64,000 nucleotides of DNA, from the IMG/VR virus record IMGVR_UViG_3300037484_000435, positions 352,001 to 416,000 of that record. The stretch is one strand, 5' to 3'. Below are positions 24,742 through 57,194 of the stretch, one piece after another. The notes beneath the pieces were generated by a model, which worked only from the letters and a program-made list of their open reading frames with translations, did not search any database and had not been told where the DNA came from. How positions within the stretch are numbered: the first letter of the stretch is position 1; every line of letters starts with the position of its first letter. Made by a program: the position numbers and the translations under genes. The DNA is from a virus (Duplodnaviria; Caudoviricetes).

Positions 24742-25183
24742 TATGAGGCAATATGTTAGTTAATGCTTCTCGTTGCACGCAACTTTCGCACCACTCCACT
24801 CCATAATGAGTGTCCACTATCGTCGAACAAGGCCGACAAATTGTCCTACCACAGCACTCACACATTGTGCCATCGGTCTGATTATAAATTCCACTACAAA
24901 CTGGACAATAATCAGCAAGAGTTATGGTGCCCGAAGTTGCTAAAGTAATACAACCTGAGTAAGAAGTTAGAACCTTAGAATAGCCAAGGGTGGACAACCA
25001 CTGCTCACCGTGAGAACTTAACAACCAGTGTTTCACATACGTTATTGCTTGCTCCGACACATCCTCACTAGTAAAAGAAGTCAACCCATTGTACTTAGCA
25101 AAATTCCTTGTAATCTCTAATTGTTCAACAACATACTCTAGAGCATTGTGGTAGTATAAACGGTCAGTCGCATCTATAATCAT
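24734..25183 (-). CDS. Hypothetical protein with C-terminal Cys-rich zinc finger
   Basis: CPVC...CECC...CRPC...CESC. Confidence 0.55.
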   Translation of the reverse strand: MIIDATDRLYYHNALEYVVEQLEITRNFAKYNGLTSFTSEDVSEQAITYVKHWLLSSHGEQWLSTLGYSKVLTSYSGCITLATSGTITLADYCPVCSGIYNQTDGTMCECCGRTICRPCSTIVDTHYGVEWCESCVQREALTNILPHNE

Positions 25184-26076
25184 TTATTTAATCCTGCCAT
25201 TACGTTTAATTCTCCTTTTATACACTTTATTAATCGATTCAAATCCAACATTATTTGGGGAAATTTTAAAGAAAATGATTCCGCCAACCTAGATGTAAAT
25301 ACTATGACTCTATCTAGCCCATAATGTTCCATACGTTTTCCACATGCGATTTGTCTACGTTGAAACCAAGTAGGGTTTTTAGTTAAACACATCGTATCTC
25401 GGACCCTAAGTAATGTAAACACCAAGCCCCAGAGTACTGCCGAACTCAATCTTGGGTTCTCATTTAACTTGTCTAAAAACTCAGCGTACTCCCCATCTAT
25501 GAAATGGTTTACAATAACAGTCTCTTCCGACACGGAAAGCCTCCCACATATCAGGGCAAAATCCTGATAAGATAGGGACTGTACATAAGCTTGGTCTAAA
25601 AAAGACAACATTTTTGCCGTGTTAGTTATGGCCACCATATCATAACCACATGACACACATATAAACTTTGTGTAAACTGTTGGTAAATTAACACTTAACT
25701 GGGTCAAATATTGCTGACAAAACGCTTCTATTTGATTTGGAAAAAAGTCACTACAAATAATTTCACAAAATCCTAGAGATTTATATTTCTGTGTAATCTT
25801 TTTTGATGAAATCTTAATTACAAAATTAAGACCCTCTTTGGGTTCAACCTTATTACCAAATATGTAAGCAATAAGTTTGGGGCCAAATATTGTATAATTA
25901 CCATAAACTTTTAAATCAGATGATTTGGTCACATTTACAGCTTCTGTGACGCCCCAACCTTGTATCAATTTATCAATTACCAGCCCGCGGACAAAAGTAT
26001 TCTCTCCACTGAGGAAAACCTTGTTAATATTAGGTAACTCTTTTTGTAGGAACTCGGACGCATACATTACATACAA
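25180..26076 (-). CDS. DNA polymerase III delta-like clamp-loader subunit
   Basis: Adjacent to dnaX; VFLSGENTF degenerate AAA+ start; size typical of HolA-like proteins. Confidence 0.55.
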   Translation of the reverse strand: MYVMYASEFLQKELPNINKVFLSGENTFVRGLVIDKLIQGWGVTEAVNVTKSSDLKVYGNYTIFGPKLIAYIFGNKVEPKEGLNFVIKISSKKITQKYKSLGFCEIICSDFFPNQIEAFCQQYLTQLSVNLPTVYTKFICVSCGYDMVAITNTAKMLSFLDQAYVQSLSYQDFALICGRLSVSEETVIVNHFIDGEYAEFLDKLNENPRLSSAVLWGLVFTLLRVRDTMCLTKNPTWFQRRQIACGKRMEHYGLDRVIVFTSRLAESFSLKFPQIMLDLNRLIKCIKGELNVMAGLNK

Positions 26077-27161
26077 ATCTCCAAAGCAATCAATTGAAGC
26101 ATAAATTTTTTGTTATTACTAGAATTAAACTGGTCCGTGCGTCGGGCTAAGACGTCAGAAATATATAGAATACGTGGAATACCTATAGATTTGAAACACG
26201 CTATATACTGGTCTATGTAAAGAGGTTGGCCACCCGAGGAGACCAAAAGCAGATTAGACACAGCATCAACTATACCATCATTAAACAAAGTGTCAGGATC
26301 GACCCCCGACTCTAATATCTCCTGTAAAACCGCCCATAAACCTTTAGAATCCTTATTAGCCACACAATCCAAAATAGCAAAGGCCTTAGCTGAGTCCATC
26401 GAGCCGATAGAGAATAAGGCTGACTCTTGATTCCACCCCTTTTCCTTGCAATAAGGTATCACCTTTTCCAATAAGGTTAGGGCGTCCCTCATAGAATTCT
26501 TAGAAGCAAACGCAACTACCGCTGCCGCTTCCTTTATATCTTTGACCTTAATACCCTTCTCTTTAATTTGTTTTTTTATTATCTCAATAATATAGTCGGC
26601 TATAACTCCAGTCGGAATGCTCTTTAAATCCAAGGACACCAATCTAGATTTTATAGTGTCAGGGATTTTTGCTTTGTTCGTTGTACAAAAAATCCAAACT
26701 AAATGGGAAGGGGGCTCCTCTAAGACCTTCAGAAGGGCGTCCCACGAGGATTGTGACTTACCGAGACCTTGGGCCTCATCAACAATAAAAACCTTGTAGT
26801 TGCCCGCTATAGGCGTTAGCATCGCATGGTCCATTAACTTACGAATATCCTCGATGTTTCCATTTGTGGACCCACTCACCTCCATAATGTCTGGGTGATG
26901 CCCCGCAAGAGACATCTTACAACTCTCACACTCATTACAAGGTTCATAACCGTTCTGCCTATTCTGACAGTCCAACGTGCGGGCGAAAATACGGGCTAAG
27001 GTAGTTTTACCTAAACCTCTAACCCCAGATAGAAGTATACCCGCAGGTACACGATTAGCAGTAAGCATGCTCTTAAGAACTAAAGTTACTTGATCGTTGT
27101 ATATAACGTCTTCGAATTTAATCGGCCTTAATTGTGTTGCTAGATTGAGATACCGTTCCAT
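26067..27161 (-). CDS. dnaX: DNA polymerase III gamma/tau clamp-loader subunit
   Basis: RPIKFEDV, GVRGLGKTT, PCNECESC zinc module, VFIVDEA, LLKVLEEPP, TIKSR. Confidence 0.9.
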   Translation of the reverse strand: MERYLNLATQLRPIKFEDVIYNDQVTLVLKSMLTANRVPAGILLSGVRGLGKTTLARIFARTLDCQNRQNGYEPCNECESCKMSLAGHHPDIMEVSGSTNGNIEDIRKLMDHAMLTPIAGNYKVFIVDEAQGLGKSQSSWDALLKVLEEPPSHLVWIFCTTNKAKIPDTIKSRLVSLDLKSIPTGVIADYIIEIIKKQIKEKGIKVKDIKEAAAVVAFASKNSMRDALTLLEKVIPYCKEKGWNQESALFSIGSMDSAKAFAILDCVANKDSKGLWAVLQEILESGVDPDTLFNDGIVDAVSNLLLVSSGGQPLYIDQYIACFKSIGIPRILYISDVLARRTDQFNSSNNKKFMLQLIALEICM

Positions 27162-27531
27162 TTACATTCCAGTCCGTAAAGATATAGGTTGGCTTACCTT
27201 GCTTCATCGCAAGGTCGATTGTGTGTTTGGTTCCTTTAGATTGACCATCCCAAAAAGCTGCTATCATATCAGAGTAATCTACTATCTCTATATTCCTTTT
27301 ATATCCAGCAGACCTATCGTAAACACCGTTTACTCTCCATTTAGCAGGAAATACTTTCCAGTCGTGACCCTCTTCTTTAGCATAATCTATTGCTAGAGAA
27401 TCTGCACCCTGAGCCCCGCCAGAAACAATGGTACACTTCCACACCCAATAGGAACGGAGTAAATCATCTAATAGCCTTTTCATATAGGGATAGTCATTAA
27501 ACGTTCGCGATCCCACCACTCCTAATTTCAT
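27118..27531 (-). CDS. SLOG-family (DUF2493/YspA-like) protein
   Basis: GVVGSRTF, VSGGAQGAD, AGYKRN, AFWDGQSKGT. Confidence 0.8.
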   Translation of the reverse strand: MKLGVVGSRTFNDYPYMKRLLDDLLRSYWVWKCTIVSGGAQGADSLAIDYAKEEGHDWKVFPAKWRVNGVYDRSAGYKRNIEIVDYSDMIAAFWDGQSKGTKHTIDLAMKQGKPTYIFTDWNVNGTVSQSSNTIKAD

Positions 27532-28544
27532 TATGTTGGTCCCCAACCGCGTTTCTTAAGATATTCAACTGCCTTTTCCATATCACCTTTAGACTTCATC
27601 AAGGCTTCCCTACAATATATTTTGGGCTCACCAGTCCTATCCCTCAGGTCCTTTATCTTTGCTGTAGTAGCATAATCGTATATATCAATATCTTTGAGTT
27701 CTGGTAATTTTAATTCAGAAAAATATTTGTCATGGGCTTCACAACCGGCCTTAGATAACTGGTCTCGAAGTTTTTCGAAACCCTCTCTTGTCTTTTCTAA
27801 GGATTCTTTCATACCAACAACAAGTTCCTCAGTAGATGGCGGATTATTTACAAGATCGGCTAAAGAGAGATCCCCTGTATCCTTAGGTTTATCCCCATAA
27901 GGTCTGCTATCCCCTATATTCTCAAATTCACTGTTGAAATTTCGATAAAGAGCTTTATGGTCTTTGGCCACGTGGAACTTTTTGACATAGCCCTCTGGTA
28001 TGTCTTCACGTAACTCTACGTCTGCCCAACCATTGGGCAAAGGGTAAGCGTAATAGGGATAAGATTTGTTAGACCCACGAACGTAGGCCACGTTGATAGG
28101 AAGTCCCATCTGGTAAGCTAGACGACATCTGTGTTGCCCATCATTGATGATAAGTTTTATGTTTCCCCTACAATCAACGTACTCTTCAATTACAGGAGGG
28201 AGAATATCTATAGTCTTAATCTCAGCCACTTTACTGATATAAGGTTTGCCACCTGCTTCTATTGCAGTCTCAGTTGTATTAGAATAGTCAACTTTCAAGT
28301 AGCCATTCAATTGTAGAATATCCCACCCGAACTCGTTCATAATGTCCCACCGCAATTGTTCAATCTTCTTCAACTCACTAATAAGACAGTAACGCTGGGT
28401 TGGTGCCAAAACGGCGGGGTCAAAAGTTTCAATACTAATAAATGAATTTAGATAGGGCTGGGTGTTCCCGCCCCGTAGTTTGATATGTTTGAGTTTTTCA
28501 CACAACTCACCAGCAGATTTTGCTGAAATGTCAGAGAAGTCCAT
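27531..28544 (-). CDS. ParB/sulfiredoxin-like domain protein with C-terminal EF-Ts N-terminal (UBA-like) domain
   Basis: LPPVIEE...INDGQHRC core; C-terminal TAKIKDLRDRTGEPKIYCREALMKSKGDMEKAVEYLKKRG matches the EF-Ts N-terminal pattern (VKELRERTGAGMMDCKKAL...GD.E.A...LRK.G). Confidence 0.7.
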   Translation of the reverse strand: MDFSDISAKSAGELCEKLKHIKLRGGNTQPYLNSFISIETFDPAVLAPTQRYCLISELKKIEQLRWDIMNEFGWDILQLNGYLKVDYSNTTETAIEAGGKPYISKVAEIKTIDILPPVIEEYVDCRGNIKLIINDGQHRCRLAYQMGLPINVAYVRGSNKSYPYYAYPLPNGWADVELREDIPEGYVKKFHVAKDHKALYRNFNSEFENIGDSRPYGDKPKDTGDLSLADLVNNPPSTEELVVGMKESLEKTREGFEKLRDQLSKAGCEAHDKYFSELKLPELKDIDIYDYATTAKIKDLRDRTGEPKIYCREALMKSKGDMEKAVEYLKKRGWGPT

Positions 28545-28578
28545 TCCTTTTTTCCTTCCTTTCCTTGTTTAGTAAAGA

Positions 28579-28618
28579 TACTAGTGGGAAACTCCCCTAA
28601 GGGGTACCACCACTAGTA
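28579..28618. terminator. Intergenic stem-loop (possible terminator)
   Basis: TACTAGTGG...CCACTAGTA 9-bp stem enclosing CCCC-taa-GGGG. Confidence 0.45.
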
Positions 28619-28648
28619 ATAAATTTGAGAGATTAGCTTTTATTATCT

Positions 28649-28831
28649 TTACTTACCCAGTAGTATAAAACCACCAGATACCATAGCAAGAATAGCCAAA
28701 CCCATATAGACTAACTGTGTTGCGTAAACTGAGAGATGTAGTTGCCCGCTAACCAAAAACAAGGCACCACCAACAATCAACAAAATCGCAAGCAGTATTA
28801 GTCCAATATTTTTAATGATATCAATGTTCAT
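28649..28831 (-). CDS. Small two-TM membrane protein
   Basis: 60 aa, two hydrophobic segments, ends GFILLGK. Confidence 0.6.
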   Translation of the reverse strand: MNIDIIKNIGLILLAILLIVGGALFLVSGQLHLSVYATQLVYMGLAILAMVSGGFILLGK

Positions 28832-28844
28832 CCTTTGTTACCTC

Positions 28845-28901
28845 TTATATTAGCCGTAAAATAAGAATTACGACCAATACTATCACAAGTATTTCTAACA
28901 T
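28845..28901 (-). CDS. 18-aa hydrophobic peptide MLEILVIVLVVILILRLI
   Basis: Hand-translated; fills the gap between two small membrane genes. Confidence 0.4.
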   Translation of the reverse strand: MLEILVIVLVVILILRLI

Positions 28902-28911
28902 ATTTGCACCA

Positions 28912-29070
28912 CTATCTACCTATCAGGATTAAAATTCCTGCAACAAGTGCAACTATTCCCATCACAACATGCAGCACAGGATGCCCAACAGCAAAAACTG
29001 TACAAATACCTGGTATTACTATTAGCCAAATTGCTAATAACAAAAGTCCCCAATTTCCTTGAATAGCCAT
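28912..29070 (-). CDS. Small two-TM membrane protein
   Basis: MAIQGNWGLLLLAIWLIV...GILILIGR; AGGAG SD; likely paralog of 28649..28831. Confidence 0.6.
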   Translation of the reverse strand: MAIQGNWGLLLLAIWLIVIPGICTVFAVGHPVLHVVMGIVALVAGILILIGR

Positions 29071-29177
29071 TATCTTTCTCCTAAAGTCTATCAAGACACA
29101 CCAAGAGATCCCTAAACATTTCTGTTCCTATTATAGGAAAAAGGCTAGATCATTATTACGATTTTTTCTTGTTGGAA

Positions 29178-29993
29178 CTACCTATACTGCGACCTTGGTC
29201 TCCTCGGTTGTCGAGAAAAAAGTCCTAATTCTTTTCTTGTTGCATTTAAATAACTACACGACACACCTAATCTTCTGGCCACCAAATCCCAAGTTCCTTC
29301 CTCGTTATATAAATTAACAATCTCATCAGACGATACTCTTTGTGAAAGTCTTTCGGGCCTAGGAGGTATAGATATAATGGTTTTATATAAATTGTATTTT
29401 CTTGGCAAATAAAAATTACAATTCCCATATAGGAGATGTAATATTCTTTGAACAATAGGGTTTCCAGAAAACTCAATAATGTAATTCTCCCCATTTCGTC
29501 TGGGTGATTTTCTAACATCTCTGTCTGAGCCAACAAACTTGGCGAAGCCTCTCACCAAAGGTTTAGTATTTCTAAAATTAACACACCAGTGGTTACTACG
29601 AGTGCTATGACGATAAAAAATAGAGCCATCTCCGTCAAACAACCCTCTGTAGTAATGCACTTTTTGTTCCTTAGGAACCAGATTACAAGGTTCGAGATTA
29701 TAAGTTTTATTATGAACTAAGCCCAACTCTCTCAATCTAGTAGACATCATGGGAGATCTGAAAGCTAAGGAACAAGTGTGTGCTTTACCTCTAATCCTAT
29801 CACTAATTTTATGGTTGGATTTAATTGTCTCTTTAAAAAGTTCAAGCCATTCGATATCTTTTATAGATATTTCCATACCAATGGAGTTCTTTTGAGATAC
29901 AAAACCATCAGACGAAAGAACACCAAGCCAATAGGCTGGGCCCTCATAATTCAAATTATTAAAGTAATCATGGGTAAGAGTGTATTCTTTCAT
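29178..29993 (-). CDS. LAGLIDADG homing endonuclease with C-terminal HTH, directly downstream of tmRNA
   Basis: YWLGVLSSDG and YYRGLFDGDG; C-terminal EIVNLYNEEGTWDLVARRLGVS; probable start MKEY at 29993. Confidence 0.9.
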   Translation of the reverse strand: MKEYTLTHDYFNNLNYEGPAYWLGVLSSDGFVSQKNSIGMEISIKDIEWLELFKETIKSNHKISDRIRGKAHTCSLAFRSPMMSTRLRELGLVHNKTYNLEPCNLVPKEQKVHYYRGLFDGDGSIFYRHSTRSNHWCVNFRNTKPLVRGFAKFVGSDRDVRKSPRRNGENYIIEFSGNPIVQRILHLLYGNCNFYLPRKYNLYKTIISIPPRPERLSQRVSSDEIVNLYNEEGTWDLVARRLGVSCSYLNATRKELGLFSRQPRRPRSQYR

Positions 29994-30028
29994 ATAAAAA
30001 TAAATTCTCCAACAATTTAATGTACTTG

Positions 30029-30616
30029 TGGAGCTGGGCGGTACTGCCCCGCCGTGTAGTCTGGCTTTCAATTATGAGTCTCTAGGTATCGTAGCCCGTT
30101 TATACTCAAAGCAGAGTTTTCTAACTCTTCGGGACCCAGCGGTTAGTGACTGATAGCGAATTGGTTTCCCGCACGGTGGCGGTTGGCCTTCTCATCCCTA
30201 TCCCAGTTTCAGTTGCTGGAATACCTACGACCGTAGGATTTAAATTGGGGGCGTATTGGGGGTGTTTTAATTAAACTAACCCTGCTAGTGCTAGGTTCGG
30301 ATTGGCTACCAACATCTCCCTTTTTCTACGCCGCCTCCACCAGTTGGTGTTTAACCTCTCCAACAAGAGGGCACGCGTAACCAAAGTTACGTGCTCCACC
30401 CAGCTATTCTGTTGCAAAGTCAACTGGGGAACTCCACAAGTTCTATTAAACGCTCGCGAAAGTCAAGCTGTCGCGTTTGTCTTGCTCCAAGTAGGATAGA
30501 ACTGTATCGAAAATTGAATTTTCGGCATTTATTGTTTCGCATCATTTTACTGGATGATACACCAGGATACCAACTTATAACCTACTTTCACCACCTATCG
30601 ATCCTAGTTCAGCCCC
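30029..30616 (-). ncRNA. ssrA: tmRNA, unusually long (588 nt)
   Basis: 5' GGGGCTGAACTAGGATCGA and 3' GGCGG-GGCAGTA-CCGCC-CAGCTCC-A form an Ala acceptor stem with G3:U70; pk1 CTGG/CCAG with GTATCAT/ATGATGC; resume context ATAAAT-GCC; GGTATC/GATACC P2 pairing. Confidence 0.92.
30443..30526 (-). other. tmRNA tag reading frame AENSIFDTVLSYLEQDKRDSLTFASV followed by TAA TAG
   Basis: GCC resume codon just after pk1 and AATAAAT; double stop. Confidence 0.8.
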
Positions 30617-30656
30617 ATGGTGGTAGGAGGACTCTATTGAATCCCCCTTTCTTTCA

Positions 30657-31091
30657 CTATCTTAAGAATCTTTTATCTTGTCCCATCAAATACTTATCTA
30701 ATAGGACTAGAAGGTTCTCTAAAATATGGCATAATTCTTTAGCACCCTGCTCCCTTTTCTGATTACGTACAACGTAATTGGCACCATTATCGTAGTATTC
30801 AAAAATATCCTCGTAACCATTACCAGAAGCAATAACTACTACAGGGAGTAAAGACGCCATACGGTTTGACTTTATATTAGCCAAAACCGTGTTAATAAGT
30901 TTGGGAGGCGATTTCCCAACTAAGATAATGCAAGCATCATAAGATTTATCCTGTAATTTGGATGTTATATTTACGGTTTGCATCTCTAAGTTAGACTCCA
31001 ATACACCAGCTTTAGTCAATTGAACTATCCAAGCGTTCGCTTCCGCGGAGTCCTCACTAAAAATTAAAAATTTCCTGTCAAAATGTTCCAT
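30657..31091 (-). CDS. Degenerate response-regulator receiver-like protein
   Basis: PVVVIASG...DIFEYYDNGANYVV resembles stand-alone receivers; phospho-Asp position not evident. Confidence 0.5.
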   Translation of the reverse strand: MEHFDRKFLIFSEDSAEANAWIVQLTKAGVLESNLEMQTVNITSKLQDKSYDACIILVGKSPPKLINTVLANIKSNRMASLLPVVVIASGNGYEDIFEYYDNGANYVVRNQKREQGAKELCHILENLLVLLDKYLMGQDKRFLR

Positions 31092-31103
31092 AGTTCTCCT
31101 AAA

Positions 31104-31481
31104 TTACACGTGACCGGGAAGTTCTTCTCCGGGGGCAACATGGGCCATCTCTAACGTAATTATATTAGGACGTTTTCCTTTAACAAAGTTTGAGATGTTC
31201 AAGATAGGAATAGGCATCAATGGAAAAAATTTACCATTCTGCTCCTTCACCATTTCCTCCATAGCTCTCGCACCCTTTTTATTGGAAACTACTTCCATTA
31301 CGTAGTCATCATTAACAATGATTTCCCATATATTGGCCCGCTTATCTCTGACAAAGTCAGATAGTGCTTCTAAAGGAATATCCTCTAAAACCAATTCCTC
31401 AACCTCAGCCTCATTCATCAAATCTAGGATTTTCTGAGCATGTTCCTTAGTTGTCTTTATTTCTGCTTTAAAATATTCCAT
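31104..31481 (-). CDS. Hypothetical acidic protein
   Basis: Probable start MEYFK at 31481, coupled to the HU stop. Confidence 0.55.
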   Translation of the reverse strand: MEYFKAEIKTTKEHAQKILDLMNEAEVEELVLEDIPLEALSDFVRDKRANIWEIIVNDDYVMEVVSNKKGARAMEEMVKEQNGKFFPLMPIPILNISNFVKGKRPNIITLEMAHVAPGEELPGHV

Positions 31482-31482
31482 C

Positions 31483-31764
31483 TTATTTAACCGCGTCCTT
31501 AAGCAATCCCGAAGGTATGAACTTAGGGTACTTAGTAGCCTCCTTATTGATTTTCTTTTGGGTTCTTGGCTCAACGTATACCCTCGCTTTCTTCTCCACA
31601 ACATCAAAAGCACCAAAACCCCTTACGCTAATCCTCTGGCCAGCCTTTAGGGCCTGCATGATGTCATCAAATACGTTACGTATAATTGCTTCAGCATTCT
31701 TTTTTGTTACCTTTTCATCCTTAAACTGTGCGACACAGCTTTCCACTAGATACTGAAAATTCAT
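31483..31764 (-). CDS. HU/IHF-family DNA-binding protein
   Basis: ISVRGFGAFDVVEKKARVYVEPRTQKKI...PKFIPSGLLKDAV; probable start 31764. Confidence 0.9.
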   Translation of the reverse strand: MNFQYLVESCVAQFKDEKVTKKNAEAIIRNVFDDIMQALKAGQRISVRGFGAFDVVEKKARVYVEPRTQKKINKEATKYPKFIPSGLLKDAVK

Positions 31765-31792
31765 TCTTTCATCTCCTCTTACTTTCCTGTGT

Positions 31793-31826
31793 CTATATAA
31801 TATATAGTACACAAACTTATGTCTTT
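31793..31826 (-). promoter_or_regulatory. Conserved-spacer promoter motif, copy A (upstream of HU)
   Basis: AAGACA-TAAG-TTTGTGTACTA-TA-TATTAT on the minus strand. Confidence 0.6.
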
Positions 31827-32338
31827 AAAAAATCAGACCATTCGGGTATCCGGTATTTAATATTTACTACAGTTTGTAAATATTCAAACACCTCCATCCG
31901 TTTGGGCAATCCTCTCAATAGCCCCATCCCAGCTTCTGAAGGTGTCCTGTCTCCCTTCTTCGAATTACAGTCAACACAAGCTGTAACTAGGTTGTCCCAA
32001 CTAAAACGACCCCCTCGGGAACGAGGAGTACAGTGATCCAACGTTAGATTTGACGCAGTTCCAGCCTTACCACAGTATTGACATTTATAATGGTCTCTCA
32101 ATAAAATGTTTCTACGGGATAATTTCACCTGAAAACGCAAACTAACTTTTCCCAACAGCCTAAGGACTGCGGGTACTTTAAACGCACGGTTGACCGTACG
32201 TACTACTCTGTCAGCATACTCTAGAACTACATCCACTTTTTCATTGAACATGAGTCTGAACGTTTGTTTTAATGATAATATTTTTAGTGGGGTGTAGTCA
32301 TGTGACAACAAAAGACATGGGTGGGTTGAAGTAAACAT
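31817..32338 (-). CDS. HNH endonuclease (McrA-like)
   Basis: RDHYKCQYCG...LTLDHCTPRSRGG..SWDNLVTACVDCNSKKG. Confidence 0.9.
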   Translation of the reverse strand: MFTSTHPCLLLSHDYTPLKILSLKQTFRLMFNEKVDVVLEYADRVVRTVNRAFKVPAVLRLLGKVSLRFQVKLSRRNILLRDHYKCQYCGKAGTASNLTLDHCTPRSRGGRFSWDNLVTACVDCNSKKGDRTPSEAGMGLLRGLPKRMEVFEYLQTVVNIKYRIPEWSDFLKT

Positions 32339-32632
32339 CTACTTACCTCCGATTTTAATCTCCTCTGGCTCCTTCTTATCTTTGGATTTCTCAGTTTTTG
32401 CTACTGCCTTTAATGCTTCAGCAACAGCATGTTTAACAATCTCTGACACTTCATCCGCAGTATAAGTTTTCTGCGGTGATTCTCCTTTCTGTCTCTGCTT
32501 CAGACTACTCCACGCAGGTTGCCCAGGACCATCTTGCCTAGAGGGCCTATCATAGGGCTCCCCCGTGTCGTTTGGCCTGAAAGCAAAAAACGAACTGTCA
32601 GCCTTTGCATCCTTAATGTCATTCTTCGCCAT
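32339..32632 (-). CDS. Hypothetical protein
   Basis: ORF track, GGAG SD. Confidence 0.55.
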   Translation of the reverse strand: MAKNDIKDAKADSSFFAFRPNDTGEPYDRPSRQDGPGQPAWSSLKQRQKGESPQKTYTADEVSEIVKHAVAEALKAVAKTEKSKDKKEPEEIKIGGK

Positions 32633-32960
32633 AATATACTCCTTTTAATATAGCTACTATGTCCTTCTCATGGACCATTCTAAATTCAATGGATTTCCCA
32701 TTTACATCATCTAGAAACAAATCCGTACCAGCTTTCCAGTTGAAGATTACTACATCTCCAATGTGAACTTCATGGGGCATAAATAAACCTTCTCGAACAT
32801 AACCTTGACTTACCGCTTCCACTACGCCTTGAATTGGCATGTTCTTAACATTATCTGGGATAATTATTCCCCCAGGGGACTGCTTCGAACTTCCAATAAT
32901 CCTTATTAGGACCCCACCATTCAACGGAACGGGATTCACTGATAATGAAAAATCGCCCAT
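32619..32960 (-). CDS. groES: Co-chaperonin GroES (Cpn10)
   Basis: VPLNGGVLI, PGGIIIPD mobile loop, GVVEAVSQG, GDVVIF, HEKDIVAIL. Confidence 0.88.
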   Translation of the reverse strand: MGDFSLSVNPVPLNGGVLIRIIGSSKQSPGGIIIPDNVKNMPIQGVVEAVSQGYVREGLFMPHEVHIGDVVIFNWKAGTDLFLDDVNGKSIEFRMVHEKDIVAILKGVYYGEE

Positions 32961-32996
32961 TGTTACCTCCTGTACTAAGTAAGTTAATTCTTTGTG

Positions 32997-33902
32997 TTAC
33001 TTACTATATAATCTCTCATATCCTACGGCTGATACTGGTAACCCATTGAATTCTAAAAAGGTTTCAACTTCTCCAGATTTGAGGTTGACAACATTAACAC
33101 CTCCAGATGACGCAACGAAAGCATGTCCCCAGTCAATACGGCTGTCATACTCCACAGCCACGGATAAGAGGTTTTTAGTTCCTGATATGACATTGTAATA
33201 ATTAACGAGGTCACTTCCATTTCTCACATCCAATCCAGATGTTGTAGCTAAGAATACTGTATCAATACCTTGATAAGTGTTCACGAACATTTTATTCAGT
33301 TGGGTGTCAGTATAAGGTATGGTCACATCCCAAGATGAAAAATCCACAGGCTCACCATATTTAATTCTTAACTGATTGCTTTCCGCAAGATAGAGAGTCG
33401 GACCAGGGGAAATGAATACATCTCTACCCTCAGTTGTTAGACACGTGAGATAATCTTCTGTTCCCGACTTTTTCCAGTACAGGCCAGAAGAAGTCAAAAT
33501 ACCCAAGTAGGAATCAAGGGAATCCACCGCAATAATGTTGTCAGAAGGCAATCCGCTGAGCGTAGTATAGGATTGGTAAGCTTGAGAAGATAGATTGACT
33601 GGTGACATTATAGGGCACTGTGCCTGTTTTACTTTATCCCAAGAAAGTGTGTAAGTACCGTTATTTAGGGTGCCCGCAATAACGTCACCATCAAATACAC
33701 AGGAACTAGTGACTTTGGAAGGTGTCATAAAAAAACTACATTCAGGAAAGATACCATCTAAGTGTAGATAAGGATTTATAATAGTTAGGCCCAACTCGGC
33801 CCCGCACAGGTATCTAGGGGGATAATCCACATTATGATACCATCTGATGTGGCTCACCTCACCAACTGCTAAACCAAGTGCTTTCCAGAACAGAAGTAAC
33901 AT
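32997..33902 (-). CDS. Hypothetical protein with beta-propeller-like repeats
   Basis: LPSDNIIAV, LATTSGL and FVASSGGV resemble ligand-binding propeller repeats. Confidence 0.5.
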   Translation of the reverse strand: MLLLFWKALGLAVGEVSHIRWYHNVDYPPRYLCGAELGLTIINPYLHLDGIFPECSFFMTPSKVTSSCVFDGDVIAGTLNNGTYTLSWDKVKQAQCPIMSPVNLSSQAYQSYTTLSGLPSDNIIAVDSLDSYLGILTSSGLYWKKSGTEDYLTCLTTEGRDVFISPGPTLYLAESNQLRIKYGEPVDFSSWDVTIPYTDTQLNKMFVNTYQGIDTVFLATTSGLDVRNGSDLVNYYNVISGTKNLLSVAVEYDSRIDWGHAFVASSGGVNVVNLKSGEVETFLEFNGLPVSAVGYERLYSK

Positions 33903-34327
33903 TAATCAGCCTCAGTTCTCCTAGGTAAAATAGTCCCCTCTAAAGGTGGAGTCTCAAACAAACGTCCGTCAGGATTAGATTTCACTGTAATCTTATTCAA
34001 GGCACCTGATCCAACTTGAGGTAGATTATTTTTTGAGTAAAGAGTTCCGTCTGGATTCATTACTGCCTTAACTTCTGGCCTTCCAAAACTTTTAGTTAAC
34101 TCATTTAAAGATGGCTCTTCTTGGTTAAAGGCATCTGGATGTGGTAAATCCATTGATTTACAATCTTCTTCTATAGTAAGTAATTTTCGCATTAAGTTTG
34201 CTATTTTTTTAATCATACGTGGTTGTTGTAGTGGTCCAGAATTTTCAGCCTTAACTATCATCTTCTTAACCTTACGTTTTAAAAAGTGATATTCAGCTAT
34301 AAGGTCCCCTTGTAATCTTCTGCTCAT
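33902..34327 (-). CDS. Hypothetical protein (first gene of the minus arm)
   Basis: GGAGG SD; 141 aa. Confidence 0.6.
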   Translation of the reverse strand: MSRRLQGDLIAEYHFLKRKVKKMIVKAENSGPLQQPRMIKKIANLMRKLLTIEEDCKSMDLPHPDAFNQEEPSLNELTKSFGRPEVKAVMNPDGTLYSKNNLPQVGSGALNKITVKSNPDGRLFETPPLEGTILPRRTEAD

Positions 34328-34497
34328 CTCGATGGCCCCTCCTTCTTTCTTTTACTTAGTATCTAACCTACCTAAAACTGCGAGAGCTTCTCGGTGCTCT
34401 GTTTCTTATTAGCCTCGAACCTCTCAAAACGAATTAAATAAAATAAAAAAATCAAAAATTTACTAATAGGTAATAGCTAGGTTTTCCTGTTTGACGT

Positions 34498-34530
34498 CTA
34501 GTACTAATATAGTACACAAATTCATCTCTA
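34498..34530 (-). promoter_or_regulatory. Conserved-spacer promoter motif, copy B
   Basis: TAGAGA-TGAA-TTTGTGTACTA-TATTAGTAC on the minus strand, heading the minus arm. Confidence 0.55.
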
Positions 34531-34590
34531 ATTAAAAAACTTTTTTACGAATATTTTATCTATCCGAAATTATTAGGAATAAAAATTTTT

Positions 34591-34618
34591 GGAACCTGCT
34601 TTTGATTCTTTTATCAAA
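34591..34618 (+). promoter_or_regulatory. ECF-sigma (sigmaE-like) promoter
   Basis: GGAACCT-N16-TCAAA preceded by an A/T tract. Confidence 0.6.
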
Positions 34619-34650
34619 AATTAATAAGCACCTATTTCTATTTAATAGGA

Positions 34651-34683
34651 TAGACTTAGATTTGTGTACTAGATATAGTATAG
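34651..34683 (+). promoter_or_regulatory. Conserved-spacer promoter motif, copy C
   Basis: TAGACT-TAGA-TTTGTGTACTA-GA-TATAGT, heading the plus arm. Confidence 0.65.
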
Positions 34684-34692
34684 GAGTAGAAA

Positions 34693-34869
34693 ATGAATGA
34701 AGGGCTTAAGTTCAACGAAATCTCAACCTTTGATAAAGCTAAATATATTAAATGTAAAAAGAGCCGCTTAATTTTAGGGTGGCTAATAAAAAATAAATGC
34801 TGGTTATTAGTACGTTACTACTATAACTATATTCACCGGAGATTTTTACAAGGAGGAAAAGAGTTTTGA
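34693..34869 (+). CDS. 58-aa basic hypothetical protein (first gene of the plus arm)
   Basis: Hand translation MNEGLKFNEISTFDKAKYIKCKK...; AGGAG SD; stop overlaps the next start. Confidence 0.55.
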   Translation: MNEGLKFNEISTFDKAKYIKCKKSRLILGWLIKNKCWLLVRYYYNYIHRRFLQGGKEF

Positions 34870-35108
34870 CCACAATACCTGATTCTTTTGAGAATTATAA
34901 TAGTAGTATTATTGTTTGCCCAGAGTGCCAAACCATGTGCAATGACGATTTCGCTAAAGCAATCTTTGAGCCTATAAGTGGGATAGTCTTGGGATATATG
35001 CTTAGGTGCACACATTGCCGAAAGAAATCTTTCATTAACATGCTAGGTAAGCCACCCCTATTTGACCTGAGTGGCCGATATATGTTCTTAACAGGGAAGG
35101 AGGATTAA
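34866..35108 (+). CDS. Small zinc-ribbon protein
   Basis: CPEC...CTHC; GGAGG SD. Confidence 0.55.
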   Translation: MTTIPDSFENYNSSIIVCPECQTMCNDDFAKAIFEPISGIVLGYMLRCTHCRKKSFINMLGKPPLFDLSGRYMFLTGKED

Positions 35109-35115
35109 ATTATAA

Positions 35116-35874
35116 TTGCTAATGGATAATAAATTACCATTCGATATTGACAATTATCATAGAGTTTTTAAGAAATACCCAAAAAGTCTCATGCAAAGTG
35201 GGGACCGCGTATACGGAGTGTGGTTGATTGGCAATTACTATAAAAGAAAAGAAAATTTTCATGGAGAATATCCCCCAAGCTTTCTAGAAAGGATTTACGC
35301 CCTCTTTCCGAATAGAGAGAGCGTGCTTCATTTATTTTCTGGAACTATAAAAGATGGAAAAACATCAACAACAGTGGATATAAATCCAGACAGAAACCCC
35401 ACCATCGTGTGTGACGTAAAAGAAGTATCTAATTATCTTGAATCTAAATCATTTCAATTAGTTATTGCAGACCCACCTTACTCAAAGAAAGACGCTAAAA
35501 TTTACGGAGTACCTCTAGTAAATAAAAGACTAGCATTGAGGGAAGCCAGAAAAGTAACGGAGGATGGGGGAATACTGATTTGGTTGGATTTGCAGACTCC
35601 GATATATAGGAAAATAGATTGGAATTTATTAGGAATGATTGGAATCTCTTGTGGAACTAATAGGGCCTTTAGGGTAGCAACTATATTTCAAGCAACATCA
35701 GTTGAAGAGGAGCACAATGAACAGCTTGTCGAGTCTGGAGAGCAAGATTCGAAATCTAATGATTCAGATAAACGGGGAAGAAAGTCGCCTCTCTCAAGAG
35801 GTGAATACCACGAGACAAAATACCCCAAACAAACTCTTACAGAGAAAAGAGTATCTCAGCAGATTGCAGTCTGA
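35116..35874 (+). CDS. Amino (N6-A/N4-C) DNA methyltransferase
   Basis: SAM motif VLHLFSG and catalytic IADPPY. Confidence 0.75.
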   Translation: MLMDNKLPFDIDNYHRVFKKYPKSLMQSGDRVYGVWLIGNYYKRKENFHGEYPPSFLERIYALFPNRESVLHLFSGTIKDGKTSTTVDINPDRNPTIVCDVKEVSNYLESKSFQLVIADPPYSKKDAKIYGVPLVNKRLALREARKVTEDGGILIWLDLQTPIYRKIDWNLLGMIGISCGTNRAFRVATIFQATSVEEEHNEQLVESGEQDSKSNDSDKRGRKSPLSRGEYHETKYPKQTLTEKRVSQQIAV

Positions 35875-35923
35875 GTGTCTATTGGTCATCGAAAAAGAGA
35901 TTTCGTTTTTTCAAAATAACTAG
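35717..35923 (+). CDS. Hypothetical coiled-coil protein overlapping the MTase tail
   Basis: GAGGAG SD before the ATG at 35717. Confidence 0.5.
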   Translation: MNSLSSLESKIRNLMIQINGEESRLSQEVNTTRQNTPNKLLQRKEYLSRLQSECLLVIEKEISFFQNN

Positions 35924-36128
35924 CCTCGTCTATAGGACATATATGGGAGTGGGACGCTTAATAAATTTAGCTCGCTTTGGTAGGGATATAAGGCGTCAGG
36001 CGAGCATTTAACAACTTGACTCTGGTGAGAGTAGAGTCAATTGACACCGAGGGCCAATCGTGCAGGGCCCGCACCGACAAGGGGCTAAGTCTCTCTTGGA
36101 GGCTTAGCACAAGAGGAGGTAGATATCT

Positions 36129-36317
36129 GTGAGTTTAAATTATATTCCTGTGATTGAAAAGATTACGACACGTAATGGAGAGGAAAAGACGATTGAATGG
36201 AAAGGAAGAATAATTAATGTACACGGCTTCAAAGCCGCTGACCCTTCACGCGAAGTAGTAGAAGATGCTATTCGCACCCGCCTACAAACAGTCTTATTTA
36301 ACAAGACGGAGGTCTAA
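36129..36317 (+). CDS. Hypothetical protein
   Basis: GAGGAGG SD, GTG start. Confidence 0.55.
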   Translation: MSLNYIPVIEKITTRNGEEKTIEWKGRIINVHGFKAADPSREVVEDAIRTRLQTVLFNKTEV

Positions 36318-36658
36318 TGAAATACGTAAGAAAACACAAAGAGGTTGACGCTATAAAGCTAAACGAACCTGTTTATAGCAAAGAGGGTAAAGAACTGGCC
36401 CCTGCAGGGTATTGGTTAGTTACCGAGGGTAAAGAACAATATTATATGTCTGATGAGTCTTTTTTAACTGAATTCGAAATAAAAAGAGACATCTCTTGGA
36501 CAACAACGCAACCCCCCTACACTTGGACTCAGACCGCTCCCACGGATTCATGGCCTTTGGTGAGTAATGTAGACAAGGTAGAATATTATTCTGGAGATTT
36601 GCCACCAGGGCATTTTGTCTTTGTTTCAGATAACACAGAGGTTTGTACAAACCAGTAA
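36317..36658 (+). CDS. Hypothetical phage protein
   Basis: YVRKHKEVDAI...GYWLV...YYMSDESFLTEFE pattern common in phage proteins. Confidence 0.6.
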   Translation: MKYVRKHKEVDAIKLNEPVYSKEGKELAPAGYWLVTEGKEQYYMSDESFLTEFEIKRDISWTTTQPPYTWTQTAPTDSWPLVSNVDKVEYYSGDLPPGHFVFVSDNTEVCTNQ

Positions 36659-36682
36659 TATTTGTTTAGGTAATTTATTATT

Positions 36683-37515
36683 ATGAGAAATCAATACGGA
36701 GAATTCACAAGGTGGACAGAAAATGAAGATAATTTAATAACTATGAATTATGCGAAAACACCTATAGAACACCTGTGTAATTTATTGCCAAAACGGACAA
36801 AATCCGCAATAAGAACTAGGGCTAAAAAGTTAGGAGCTTCTCTGCGGGCTGGGGAAAAACAAAGAATTTATTCTGTAAATGAGAATTATTTTGCGTCACC
36901 AACAATAGATAATTGTTACTGGGCTGGTTATATTGCCGCCGATGGGTGCTTACTTCATCAAGGTAACAGGAGAATGCTCACATTTTGCATAAAAAATCTG
37001 ATGAAGACCATTTACTCAAACTTAAACATCGTTTGAACTATACAGGTAAAATAGAGTATGGAAAAGCATCAATTAAAGGTTACGGGATATATGACCAAGT
37101 TCAACTAAGAATAAACTCTTCTAAGATATTGGAAGACTTGGGGAGGGTATTTAACATGGGACAACGAAAAAGTTTCACGCTGAAGCCCCCAAATCTAAGT
37201 AATTTACTCTTTAAGAAGGCATTTATAATTGGGTTTATAGATGGAGATGGTTGTATAAGTACAACTTTTTCTAACAATAAACATCATTTAAGGGTGGGGT
37301 TGGTAGGAACTAAAGATGTTTTATTATGGATTAAAAGTATTTTTGACAAGTGCTATCCACCCAAGGAACGGGTGTCTAACGTATTACCACACGAGGGTTG
37401 TTGGCGATACGCAGTACAAGGAATACGTGCTATTGAAATACTGACGGACCTTAATAAAGTTCCTATATATAAACTGGATAGGAAATGGAAAATAATTAAC
37501 AAATTTGGAGTTTAA
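36683..37515 (+). pseudogene. LAGLIDADG endonuclease split by a frameshift at an A6 run (36991-36996)
   Basis: First half has a Myb-like repeat and YWAGYIAADG; second half in another frame has FIIGFIDGDG; adding one A joins ...LTFCIKKSDEDHL... Confidence 0.8.
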
Positions 37516-37516
37516 C

Positions 37517-38386
37517 ATGAAGAAAACATTGATGATAGGCATTAACGCCTATCCAGATTCACCACTTAACGGGTGTTTGTCGGACATCAGATTGATGTAC
37601 AAAGTATTAAAGGACATTTACGGCTATACAGACTTCCGAGTATTAGATGATCAGAAAGCCACAAAGAAAAACATACTTAAAGGTATGCAGTGGCTATGCA
37701 CGGGAGTCAAGAAAGGGGATGAACTGGTTGTAGATTACTCTGGCCATGGAACCCAATTGGCTTGCACAACTAAAACCGCTGGATTTGAAATAGATAATCT
37801 AGATGAATGCCTAGTGCCTTACGATATGGACTGGGAGGATCCTTTGCGGGACGATGATCTAAATCAATTTATAACAAATACGCCTAAAGGTGTTAAAATA
37901 TTATTTATTGCTGACTGTTGCTTCTCGGGAACTCTACTAAGAAATGGAATACTGCCACCTAAAGTAAAAAATCGTTATATGGCCCCACCATTGTACTCTA
38001 TTCTTACTGGGGAAATAAACCTAGATGAAGACCTGTGTATGATCTCATCCTCACGGAAGACGCGTGGTGATAAAACAGATGACAATAAAAGTATTCAAAA
38101 GTTACCATTTATTATACAGAGTACTGATCAGGGTGACGCGATACTTATATCTGGGTGCTCTGACAAACAGACCAGTGCTGACGCCTATATTAACGGGAGG
38201 TATCACGGGGCCTTGACCTTTTACTTAGCACAAACGCTGAAGGAAGCGAATTGGAATATATCTTACACCGACTTGGTCGTTAAAGTAAATGAGAAATTGG
38301 ATAGGGAACAATATGATCAGGATCCCCAGTGTGAGGGGCGTGCAGAATTTCTTGATAAACCTTTCCTTGGAGGAGTAAAAAAGTGA
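37517..38386 (+). CDS. Caspase-like protease (metacaspase, peptidase C14)
   Basis: GINAY...LNGC..D, DYSGHG catalytic His, ADCCFSG catalytic Cys, SGC...QTSAD, HGALT. Confidence 0.9.
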   Translation: MKKTLMIGINAYPDSPLNGCLSDIRLMYKVLKDIYGYTDFRVLDDQKATKKNILKGMQWLCTGVKKGDELVVDYSGHGTQLACTTKTAGFEIDNLDECLVPYDMDWEDPLRDDDLNQFITNTPKGVKILFIADCCFSGTLLRNGILPPKVKNRYMAPPLYSILTGEINLDEDLCMISSSRKTRGDKTDDNKSIQKLPFIIQSTDQGDAILISGCSDKQTSADAYINGRYHGALTFYLAQTLKEANWNISYTDLVVKVNEKLDREQYDQDPQCEGRAEFLDKPFLGGVKK

Positions 38387-38541
38387 CAGCCAATTATATA
38401 ATTTATGACCTGAAGGCCATAGCCGAGCAAGTTAGCAAACTCTTACCTGATTACACAGCAAAAGAATTAATGAGTTGGTCTATACCAGACATTATATGTT
38501 ACATGAGAGAATCTGGATATATAGTATATGGAGTAAACTAA
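38383..38541 (+). CDS. 52-aa hypothetical protein
   Basis: GTG start after GGAGGAG; stop abuts the next ATG. Confidence 0.5.
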   Translation: MTANYIIYDLKAIAEQVSKLLPDYTAKELMSWSIPDIICYMRESGYIVYGVN

Positions 38542-52664: not shown

Positions 52665-53267
52665 ATGAAACAAACATTAGTCCCGATTGTCATTGAGAAA
52701 ACTAGCAAGGGCGAGAGATCGTATGATATATATTCTAGACTCCTGAAAGAGCGTATCATCTTTTTGGGCACAGGTATAGATGATGATGTGGCCAATCTGA
52801 TAGTTGCTCAAATGTTATTTTTGGAAAGTGAGTCACCTGATAAAGATATTTATCTATATATTAATTCCCCGGGCGGGCATGTTACTTCGGGGATGTCTAT
52901 CTACGATACCATGCAATACATAACACCAGACATACAAACCATCTGTATGGGTCAAGCTGCCTCCATGGGATCGTTACTATTGGCCGCAGGTACCGCAGGA
53001 AAACGATTTGCTCTTCCTAACGCCCGTATAATGATACACCAAGTTATGGGGGGCACCAGTGGCCAGGCAACAGATATAGAAATACACGCAAAAGAAATCC
53101 TGAGAGTTAAAGACCAACTAACAAATATTTTATCACAGCACACTGGTAAGCCGTTTGACCAAGTTAAACAAGATTCGGAACGTGATAATTTTATGTCACC
53201 CCAAGAAGCTTTGGATTACGGACTTATCGACCAGATAATTACCAAGAGGAGTCTTCCTAAAGCATGA
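52665..53267 (+). CDS. clpP: ATP-dependent Clp protease proteolytic subunit
   Basis: [41 protein letters not shown]: intact Ser-His-Asp triad. Confidence 0.97.
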
Positions 53268-56210: not shown

Positions 56211-57194
56211 ATGGAACAATCAAAAAACGTAAAGTGGTCTCTGGATGAAATCAACTTACTAAAGCAGCTATATCCTAATCCAAAAAATAAACAACAAATC
56301 TTAGAATTATTGCCACACAGAACGTGGGGAAGTATAAGGACTGAGTCCTACAAGTTGGGCGTAACTATGGAGAAACCCACTAAATGTTTATTAGACTTCT
56401 CAAACATAGATTCTGAAGAAAAAGCTTATATACTAGGATTTATAGCGGCGGACGGATTTATTTCCAATACAAATAAACAGTTTAATTGCTGGGTTTTAGG
56501 AATACAAATAGCAGAAAAAGATTTAATTTTATTAAGGCAAATAAGAGATTTATTGAACCCCAATCTTAAATTGAGTTGTACACATTACGCAGATAAACCT
56601 AATTGGTCAGATTGTTACAGATTAACAATGTATGATAATAAATTATGTAATGACCTCAAGGCACACGGAATTACGGAAAATAAAAGTAAAACATTGACAC
56701 CCTCAAATGGAATACCAGAGGAACTTATCCACCATTATATTCGTGGATATTTTGATGGAGACGGCAGTTTCTGGATTCGGAAGGGAGACGGTCGTCTCTA
56801 TGCTGGGTTTGCTGGAAGTGAATCTATGATGAATTATATATCAACTTGGTTCAAACAACAATATAAACATGAGTGTACCTTACGGAAGAAAGAAGGATGT
56901 TATTTGTTAACTTATTGTGGATTTACTGCGATCAATTTAGCTAAACTTCTATACTCCGATGCTACTATATATTTAGAAAGAAAATATTTAAGAGCAGCGA
57001 AGTTCTTCGATAAGGAACGACAAGAGCATATAATAGACAAATTAAATGGAGACAATATATGTAAATTATATAAAGAGCTGGGAACATGGACAAAAGTTGC
57101 TGAATATTTAGGAGTTAATGTAAGTTATATATCACGAATAAAAGATGGAAAACGAGGTAAAATAGGAAAACTTAATTGTGACAAGTTTAATTAA
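56211..57194 (+). CDS. LAGLIDADG homing endonuclease with N-terminal Myb-like repeat and C-terminal HTH
   Basis: YILGFIAADG and YIRGYFDGDG; KWSLDEINLL repeat; C-terminal ICKLYKELGTWTKVAEYLGVN. Confidence 0.9.
   Translation: MEQSKNVKWSLDEINLLKQLYPNPKNKQQILELLPHRTWGSIRTESYKLGVTMEKPTKCLLDFSNIDSEEKAYILGFIAADGFISNTNKQFNCWVLGIQIAEKDLILLRQIRDLLNPNLKLSCTHYADKPNWSDCYRLTMYDNKLCNDLKAHGITENKSKTLTPSNGIPEELIHHYIRGYFDGDGSFWIRKGDGRLYAGFAGSESMMNYISTWFKQQYKHECTLRKKEGCYLLTYCGFTAINLAKLLYSDATIYLERKYLRAAKFFDKERQEHIIDKLNGDNICKLYKELGTWTKVAEYLGVNVSYISRIKDGKRGKIGKLNCDKFN

Follow-up and report, generated by a model that had tools for sequence, protein, structure and literature searches.

An oversized, one-piece tmRNA gene lengthened by folded modules in a clade of huge phages

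The window considered here, a stretch of 64,000 nucleotides (nt), corresponds to bases 352001-416000 of a 545,322-bp IMG/VR virus record from an uncultured phage (IMGVR_UViG_3300037484_000435) and harbors, on its minus strand, a gene for a transfer-messenger RNA (tmRNA) at positions 30029-30616. With 588 nt, G1 and the discriminator A included, as read directly from the sequence with its orthologues aligned, the gene is in one piece and in standard order, with the 5' end before the tag and the T-arm last. An earlier note, made from the sequence alone, had described an oversized, one-piece phage tmRNA at this place, with a long tag and a GGCAGUA T-loop; read on the minus strand, all of its anatomical details are correct, the 588 nt and the non-permuted order included. 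The 5' strand of the acceptor stem, GGGGCTG (30616-30610), pairs with CAGCTCC (30036-30030) and provides a G3:U70 pair, the identity pair for alanine. There is no D stem, and the D-loop analogue reads GGATCGA. The long helix P2 has its 5' strand at 30567-30596 and its partner at about 30057-30097 (RNAalifold columns 21-58 with 597-635), and comprises around 35 pairs, many of them compensatory. Pseudoknot 1 (30539-30565), formed by P3 (CTGG/CCAG) and P4 (GTATCAT/ATGATGC), lies upstream of the resume codon, which is itself preceded by an A-rich leader, the GCC coming after …UAAAU. The tag frame (30446-30526) runs from this GCC (30526-30524) through 26 codons to a TAA (30448-30446), directly after which stands a second stop, TAG (30445-30443). 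Helix 5 (30440-30502), in which GTTCTAT (30502-30496) pairs with ATAGAAC (30446-30440), encloses the stop codon together with the 3' two thirds of the tag.

Some 417 nt lie between the stop codon and the 3' end of the tmRNA, about 390 of which are hairpin-rich and come before the T-arm. This part contains the region of pseudoknots 2 and 3 (30342-30436), recognized in alignments by a conserved GCAACAGAA motif and a CCTC..GAGG..TAAAC..pseudoknot module, followed by two inserts. Insert A, of about 70 nt (30255-30328), sits within a helix GGAGGCGGCG / CGCCCCC, and insert B, a multi-helix element of about 145 nt (30098-30241), occupies the place of pseudoknot 4. The T-arm (30053-30037; GGCGG / GGCAGTA / CCGCC), with a 5-bp stem and a 7-nt loop, adjoins the 3' strand of the acceptor, and the discriminator A at 30029 is followed by CAA (30028-30026) instead of an encoded CCA. 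The minimum free energy fold closes both the acceptor stem and the T-arm (z = -2.4).

No match to the region was found among GenBank phages by blastn, the flanking proteins have distant relatives or none by tblastn, and a search for related loci from one 1145-aa protein found nothing. Relatives, among them a 658-kb contig, were reached via homologues of a 301-aa protein encoded at window 32997-33902. Their contigs, seven of which (five from JGI sample 3300075153 and two from ENA) are known by gene maps, share the order 300-aa protein, Cpn10, x, HNH, HU, 131-aa protein, 144-aa protein, gap, ParB-CE; in all mapped contigs except L142 the gap at this syntenic place measures 470-770 nt and holds no called gene. 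In five relatives the DNA of the gap contains a collinear tmRNA, giving five distinct orthologues of 386-561 nt, namely L135 (13501-14064; 561 nt), L140 (13372-13890; 516 nt), L138 (13278-13781; 501 nt), L141 (3380-3768; 386 nt) and L144 (6427-6947; 518 nt), the last located through the motif of insert B. The phages that carry this tmRNA gene form a clade of huge phages from sediment and freshwater.

The base pairing of the molecule has been maintained through many changes of sequence. An RNAalifold consensus of five orthologues contains 110 pairs, 44 of which carry compensatory double changes (43 in the RNAalifold tally), with 90.8% of cells paired. Sliding the 3' partner by 1-3 columns lowers the compensatory pairs to 7-14 and the paired cells to 40-49%, and 500 within-column shuffles yield a mean of 20 and a maximum of 29 compensatory pairs. 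Across the six orthologues, the window copy included, the acceptor stem occurs as GGGGCTG/CAGCTCC, GGGGCCG/CGGCTCC, GGGGCAC/GTGCTCC and GGGGTGC/GCACTCC, always paired and always with G3:U70. Helix P3 of pseudoknot 1 exists in four paired variants (CTGG/CCAG, GGGT/ACCC, TGGC/GCCA, CGGT/ACCG), P4 covaries as well (RNAalifold columns 59-65 with 74-80), and the T stem, with four variants, keeps its 5 bp paired in six of six. In helix 5 of L135, which reads CTAT(C)CTA and TAGGAATAG, the letters have changed and the pairing is retained. Judged from these aligned sequences, the structure of the tmRNA is under selection.

The tag frame is likewise preserved. From GCC it is open over 25-26 codons in all six orthologues, in each of which one or both of the alternative frames are closed, and the long frame put forward in the earlier note is thus the real resume frame. 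The predicted tags are AENSIFDTVLSYLEQDKRDSLTFASV for the window gene (26 codons, ending in FASV before TAA TAG), AEDSIFDTILAYKEQDERDNLGFASV for L140, AEDSIFDTILAYVEQDKRDNLGYATV for L135, AEDVSILDAVLAFTEQDRSEVTLTA for L138, AEDNSFDMLSAFCEADRKVSVAYAG for L144 and AKKSFSDIVLESVAYFENTSSHVAA for L141, where the stop is TAG. They share the pattern AE(D/N)xS(I/F)(F/L)D..(V/I)L(S/A)(Y/F).EQD(K/R). Between them, the three closest tags differ by 6-7 synonymous codon changes and by 4-8 others that are mostly conservative. Conservation is higher in the first two thirds than at the C-terminus, which across the clade reads ASV, ATV, LTA, YAG or VAA, all small or hydrophobic residues; to go by these ends, the C-terminus drifts among such residues and has not switched to a new defined signal. 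No peptide resembling the tag was found in the phage's own proteins by tblastn of the tag peptides against its genome. Five syntenic orthologues, compensatory changes and an open tag frame together establish a genuine phage tmRNA.

Regarding automatic detection, neither ARAGORN nor Rfam at its gathering score calls the window tmRNA; with thresholds lowered to ps70 and ps50, ARAGORN returned only spurious "permuted" calls with nonsense tags, which were rejected. The match of the window copy to RF00023 is local (model positions 56-185, E-value mode) and scores 9.8 bits, short of the gathering cut-off of 47 bits, although this partial alignment does set GCC on the model's resume codon. With the permuted model RF04321 the two halves of the gene match separately, at 27.3 and 18.1 bits, and the match to RF01849 is weak. 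Four orthologues align with RF00023 end to end (model positions 1-374) and with precisely the coordinates given above, L138 at 73.4, L144 at 61.9, L141 at 55.8 and L135 at 49.4 bits. As the window copy fails the RF00023 gathering score, its membership in the tmRNA family is assigned from orthology plus anatomy. Applied to the six orthologues, ARAGORN reports L144 alone, and with a spurious tag, so that none of the six is correct. ARAGORN, the tool of huge-phage surveys (PMC7162821), thus recovers none of them correctly and the current Rfam model overlooks two; huge phages therefore have more tmRNAs than have been counted.

The extra length of the gene consists of lineage-specific folded modules within the ring of pseudoknots, where a tmRNA tolerates replacement. 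Insert A is present in the window phage and in L138, partial in L135 and absent in L140, L144 and L141. L138 has, besides insert A, one further copy of the CCTC..GAGG..TAAAC pseudoknot module. In the 386-nt gene of L141 the T-loop is canonical, CCA is encoded, the tag ends in VAA and, on our reading of the sequence, four pseudoknot modules are retained. Insert B is carried by the window gene, L140, L135 and L144. It folds into five to six helices (RNAalifold, four orthologues) with compensatory changes in at least four stems, for instance UCCAG/CUGGG to CUCGG/CCGGG to CCUAG/UUAGG, GGGAU/GUCCC to GAGAU/GUCUC, and CAG/CUG to CCGG/CCGG, and its loops …CCACCGTGCGGGAAACCAA…, …GGGTCCCGAAGAG… and …GAGTATAAAC do not vary. 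No family in Rfam matches insert B at E<=10. Searches of IMG/VR with its core motif, and with the family-specific pseudoknot pattern, each returned only the relatives L144 and L145, and a 16-mer from it gave 120 rows among metagenome contigs, all of them due to chance in GC-rich DNA.

Contigs from four metatranscriptome studies contain pieces of relatives' tmRNAs, 87-100% alike, which match only inside 30061-30592, with none in the protein-coding flanks of the gene; positions 30250-30320 and both flanks are without RNA-contig cover, which is not read as absence. Single contigs span both borders of insert B by at least 31 letters. Insert A is skipped in the relatives' RNA-library contigs, as it is in the DNA of L140, and the "joints" seen in these contigs match relatives that lack insert A. 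These data are contigs and not reads, from libraries that can hold DNA, and constitute modest evidence.

Typical tmRNAs measure about 350 nt, and the longest of 274 surveyed reached 425 nt (PMC1168896). In a database of 97,179 sequences, no non-intron form survived the combination of a 500-bp size cut-off and a bit-score cut-off (PMC11915505). At 501-588 nt, five of the six lineages described here would have the longest non-intron, non-permuted tmRNAs that we have found described. The sizes of the orthologues (386, 501, 516-518, 561 and 588 nt) suggest that the pseudoknot ring has grown by whole folded domains, and the modules have probably been gained stepwise, with a domain of about 145 nt for pseudoknot 4, an insert of about 70 nt and a tag roughly twice the usual length.

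Compared with the standard tmRNA (RF00023; E. coli SsrA), the window gene has the same gene order, G3:U70 acceptor, missing D stem, long helix 2, pseudoknot 1, alanine resume codon, stop codon in helix 5 and pseudoknot ring before the T-arm. It differs in its 588 nt, the domain of about 145 nt in place of pseudoknot 4, the 26-residue tag, the GGCAGUA T-loop and the CCA that is not encoded. We consider it probable, at about 0.8, that the gene specifies a functional, standard-order, one-piece tmRNA of a huge-phage clade, lengthened by folded modules. Several observations weigh against this. The window copy and L140 fall under every curated tmRNA threshold, the best score being 27 bits for half of RF04321. 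The covariation is drawn from six distinct sequences, and the consensus structure derives from the same alignment. The RNA-library contigs come from relatives and not from this very sequence, and such libraries can contain DNA. L142 has no tmRNA at the syntenic place, and the tmRNA is thus dispensable in some lineages. Finally, the RNA would depend on a host SmpB that is compatible with a GGCAGUA T-loop.

The T-loop varies within the clade. It reads GGCAGTA in the window gene and L140, TTCGACT in L138 and L144, TTCGATT in L141 and CGCGATA in L135. The window gene and L138 have identical T stems (GGCGG/CCGCC) and acceptor strands on either side of GGCAGTA and TTCGACT, respectively. The D-loop analogue follows the T-loop in part, in that the variant loops go with GGATCGA, while L138 has GGATTCGA and both L141 and L144 have GGTATCGA. 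To see the loop in context, the pattern GGCAGTA-N5-CAGCTCCA may be considered, which occurs in at least 119 viral contigs, 98 of them with a perfect 5-bp T stem. In 84 of these 98, a 5' end GGGGCTGAAnTAGGATCGAC lies 8-170 nt downstream of CCA, which is the permuted two-piece form, and ARAGORN reports a permuted tmRNA with an ANDN…(L/I/V)AA tag for 49 of them. The statement in the earlier note that this loop typifies alphaproteobacterial two-piece tmRNAs is thereby upheld. The window gene itself shows no permuted layout, with no GGGGCTG downstream of the T-arm and no such T-arm upstream of G1. Because the T-loop varies among the orthologues of the clade, the alpha-type loop is not tied to the two-piece gene form. 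Going by the sequences, it would have arisen, or been imported, inside the one-piece lineage, UUCGACU giving way to GGCAGUA or CGCGAUA between identical flanking stems, a change compatible both with convergence and with gene conversion by another tmRNA. These loop variants between identical stems make up a natural series on the role of the loop for SmpB or the ribosome.

With the alphaproteobacterial two-piece tmRNA, the window gene shares the GGCAGUA T-loop, GGAUCGA as its D-loop analogue and, downstream of the tag, the GCAACAGAA motif. Two-piece tmRNAs of the alpha type are also borne by phages, namely Pelagibacter myophages and the Methylophilales phage Melnitz, whose tmRNA gene has, in the 3' domain, a glutamine riboswitch as an additional structured element (PMC9004378). 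Unlike them, the window gene is not permuted, its tag begins AE(D/N)S… where theirs reads ANDN…(L/I/V)AA, and its orthologues in the clade include some with canonical T-loops. A one-piece order combined with a GGCAGUA T-loop is also found in three GC-rich phage contigs, L128 (1498-1847, minus strand), L127/L012 (L127:1498-1859, minus strand) and L034 (5719-6065, plus strand), so that the combination is not unique to the window phage. All three genes adjoin tRNA clusters, are missed by ARAGORN and are called by Rfam; that of L034 ends in CCC, and that of L128 further resembles the window gene in having CAA for CCA and lying beside phage tRNA genes. In contrast to the window gene, they are of normal size (344-359 nt), have short ANDN…AA tags and score 62-77 bits with RF00023. 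A MAFFT alignment with these GC-rich one-piece tmRNAs shows likeness at the two ends only, and no sequence relation to the inserts.

The resemblance to the two-piece type raises the question of whether the RNA, while one-piece in gene order, matures into two base-paired pieces, insert B or A being cut out at the position of pseudoknot 4. Apart from the T-loop and the D-loop analogue, such a maturation is favored by the halves scoring apart on RF04321 (27.3 and 18.1 bits) and by insert B standing exactly where, in alphaproteobacteria, pseudoknot 4 is a single helix and the molecule is split (PMC1168896). However, no part of the 3' half is better conserved than insert B, whose loops are invariant and whose stems covary, as would be unexpected for a discarded spacer; it is contained, with both borders spanned by at least 31 letters, in the relatives' RNA-library contigs; and it is also present in L144, whose T-loop is canonical. 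Maturation into two pieces is therefore unlikely.

Smaller elements with the same loop were also noticed. On L059 (764-845, plus strand), a mini tmRNA of about 82 nt consists of a tRNA-like domain only, with a GGCAGTA T-loop and an encoded CCA and without a tag frame, and resembles the tmRNA lacking a coding sequence of mycobacteriophage DS6A. Four unrelated viral contigs (L019, L035, L084 and L094) carry elements of about 68 nt made of an acceptor plus a T-arm with a GGCAGTA loop, whose tails are CTA, CTG or CCT and not CCA.

With regard to the fate of tagged proteins, the earlier note had suggested that they may be diverted from host ClpXP, or toward the phage ClpP or another protease. Escape from ClpXP is not supported, since the …AASV end of an ssrA variant in standard use as a slow degradation tag is strictly ClpXP-dependent in Salmonella, where deletion of clpXP abolishes the degradation (PMC11003136), and since the orthologous tags end in VAA, LTA, YAG and ATV. 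Proteins tagged by the phage tmRNA would be broken down by a Clp protease of host or phage origin, probably at a lower rate than those with an LAA tag. The phage encodes a ClpP at window 52665-53267 on the plus strand (PF00574, 294 bits), to which tagged proteins might be routed, a second ClpP-family protein and a 677-aa Clp-type AAA+ protein (L269:1057-3090, minus strand, equal to G000:C1 ~127990-130023), in which AAA_2 and ClpB_D2-small occupy residues 352-611 and the 350-aa N-terminal region has no Pfam match. This ATPase shows P-I-G-I at the place of what we take to be the ClpP-docking IGL loop of ClpA. A 260-kb relative has a ClpP-family gene and a homologue of the Clp-type ATPase (L270) that is 51% identical and in which the 350-aa N-terminal region is conserved. 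Searches of the phage for SmpB, alanyl-tRNA synthetase (AlaRS), Lon and S41 (Tsp) protease found none of them.

The commonest length of tmRNA tags is 10 aa (PMC11915505). A tag much longer than that of E. coli, with an end other than LAA, is nevertheless known from the Mollicute mf-SsrA of Mesoplasma florum, a precedent in which the long tag has been re-tuned to Lon (PMC9382460). The two cases differ in that the tag of the Mollicute has an NYAFA end and accompanies a loss of ClpXP, whereas the phage encodes ClpP and a Clp-type ATPase with no Lon found, and the tags are unrelated in sequence. A tag of 25-26 residues, kept in phages with ClpP-family and Clp-ATPase genes, is a candidate for phage-controlled protein tagging during infection. 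It is conceivable, if rather doubtful, that this amounts to a semi-private branch of trans-translation, in which the AE(D/N)S(I/F)FD..L.Y.EQD… tag, perhaps through its conserved N-terminal two thirds, would be an orthogonal degron or adaptor-binding peptide for the phage Clp-type unfoldase and ClpP-family protease, and insert B a new protein- or ligand-binding module governing the timing of the RNA's action. For the latter role, the riboswitch for glutamine in the tmRNA gene of Melnitz is a precedent.

Conversely, the main effect of the RNA could be to compete with or modulate trans-translation in the host, for example by titrating SmpB or occupying stalled ribosomes, the fate of the tag being secondary. 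The phage lacks an SmpB of its own, the tag-less tmRNA of mycobacteriophage DS6A inhibits host tmRNA in E. coli (PMC11915505), and the tag-less mini tmRNA on L059, in another viral contig, has the GGCAGTA T-loop. A pure decoy would, however, have no need of what six lineages have retained, namely a frame of 25-26 codons with conserved residues, the resume context and the stop codons in helix 5, and this role appears improbable, even more so than a two-piece maturation.

Immediately beyond the tmRNA, starting 36 nt after it, lies a gene for a free-standing LAGLIDADG homing endonuclease (29178-29993, minus strand; Pfam LAGLIDADG_3, E 4.8e-4) with the motifs LGVLSSDG and RGLFDGDGS. A paralogue at window 56211-57194 (E 8e-31) itself scores 1.5e-10 in Pfam. 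The gene is missing beside the tmRNA in all relatives, which have such genes elsewhere. This neighbor, directly adjoining the tmRNA gene, brings to mind the intron-form tmRNA genes, which exceed 500 bp and are interrupted in the T-loop by group I introns, some with a LAGLIDADG gene (PMC11915505), and hence the possibility that the extra ~240 nt are a self-splicing intron and the mature RNA is of normal size. While all known tmRNA introns are in the T-loop (PMC11915505), the T-arm of the window gene is uninterrupted. It has no intron signature, in that neither Intron_gpI nor any other Rfam intron family matches at E<=10, the dedicated tmRNA_intron model not being in Rfam and not having been run. 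The extra sequence falls into two distinct modules, each found in some lineages and not in others, the endonuclease gene is outside the RNA and missing in relatives with the same inserts, and the joints in RNA-library contigs, in which the modules are bridged, match relatives' DNA without insert A and do not reflect splicing. The extra length is accordingly not an intron, the case that the earlier note had named as a refutation of its reading, and a spliced, normal-sized product is very improbable.

As for the 3' end, 13 of the 40 tRNA genes that ARAGORN finds in the phage record lack CCA, and most of these have CAA, often CAAGAA, right after the discriminator; examples are G000:C1 46207-46281, 75644-75728 and 521251-521327. 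The trailer of the window tmRNA is CAAGTA and those of its orthologues are CAAGAA and CAAGGT. Given that the CAA trailer is common to the phage tRNAs and the tmRNA, the gene follows the phage's tRNA-processing pattern and is not degenerate. From its recurrence in these sequences, CAA(GAA) may be a common signal for 3' processing. That a tmRNA gene once captured is now in decay here, as the failure of ARAGORN and Rfam, the non-canonical T-loop and the missing CCA might suggest, is already contradicted by the comparative data, with compensatory changes in all helices, a tag frame open in six of six and a CCA-less trailer common to 13 phage tRNAs, and hardly any likelihood is left to it.

For a functional one-piece tmRNA lengthened by folded modules, the path from processing and charging to tagging may be pictured as follows. 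The RNA would most likely be transcribed with upstream genes and excised like the phage's own tRNAs. A scan with promoter consensus sequences showed nothing promoter-like immediately before the tmRNA 5' end, from which read-through from upstream plus processing is proposed; the sole site that it gave within the gene does not exceed chance expectation. The 3' trailer would then be removed and CCA added by the host or by a phage-encoded enzyme, a nucleotidyltransferase of the CCA-adding type being present at G000:C1 ~480894-481271. Because of the G3:U70 pair the RNA would be charged with alanine, and as the phage encodes neither AlaRS nor SmpB, the host would have to supply AlaRS for charging and SmpB for delivery to stalled ribosomes. 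Translation would resume at GCC, add the 26-residue tag and end at TAA. What sets the window tmRNA apart from those known is its record length, a new folded domain for pseudoknot 4, a tag both long and conserved, and a T-loop of the alpha type that was acquired inside the lineage; phage tmRNAs as such, two-piece ones included, have already been described (PMC7162821, PMC9004378).

Some further features of the locus may be mentioned. A leader of 40 nt (window 30617-30660, minus strand; L135:13460-13500) separates the stop codon of the 144-aa gene from G1. It contains a conserved hairpin, GGGGGA…TCCTCC, and then …CCTACCACCAT immediately before G1, and this hairpin may constitute a processing or RNase P context. 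Elsewhere in the phage record, a tRNA gene at G000:C1 47126-47202 has the anticodon CTA, that of an amber suppressor, and is labelled tRNA-Pyl by ARAGORN. More broadly, window positions ~25000-38500 and the syntenic parts of L135 and L140 form a conserved neighborhood rich in genes for translation and protein quality, including Cpn10, a peptide deformylase-SEC-C fusion, a methionine aminopeptidase (M24) and a C14 metacaspase, and the ParB-CE protein of this neighborhood is fused to an EF-Ts-N-like tail.

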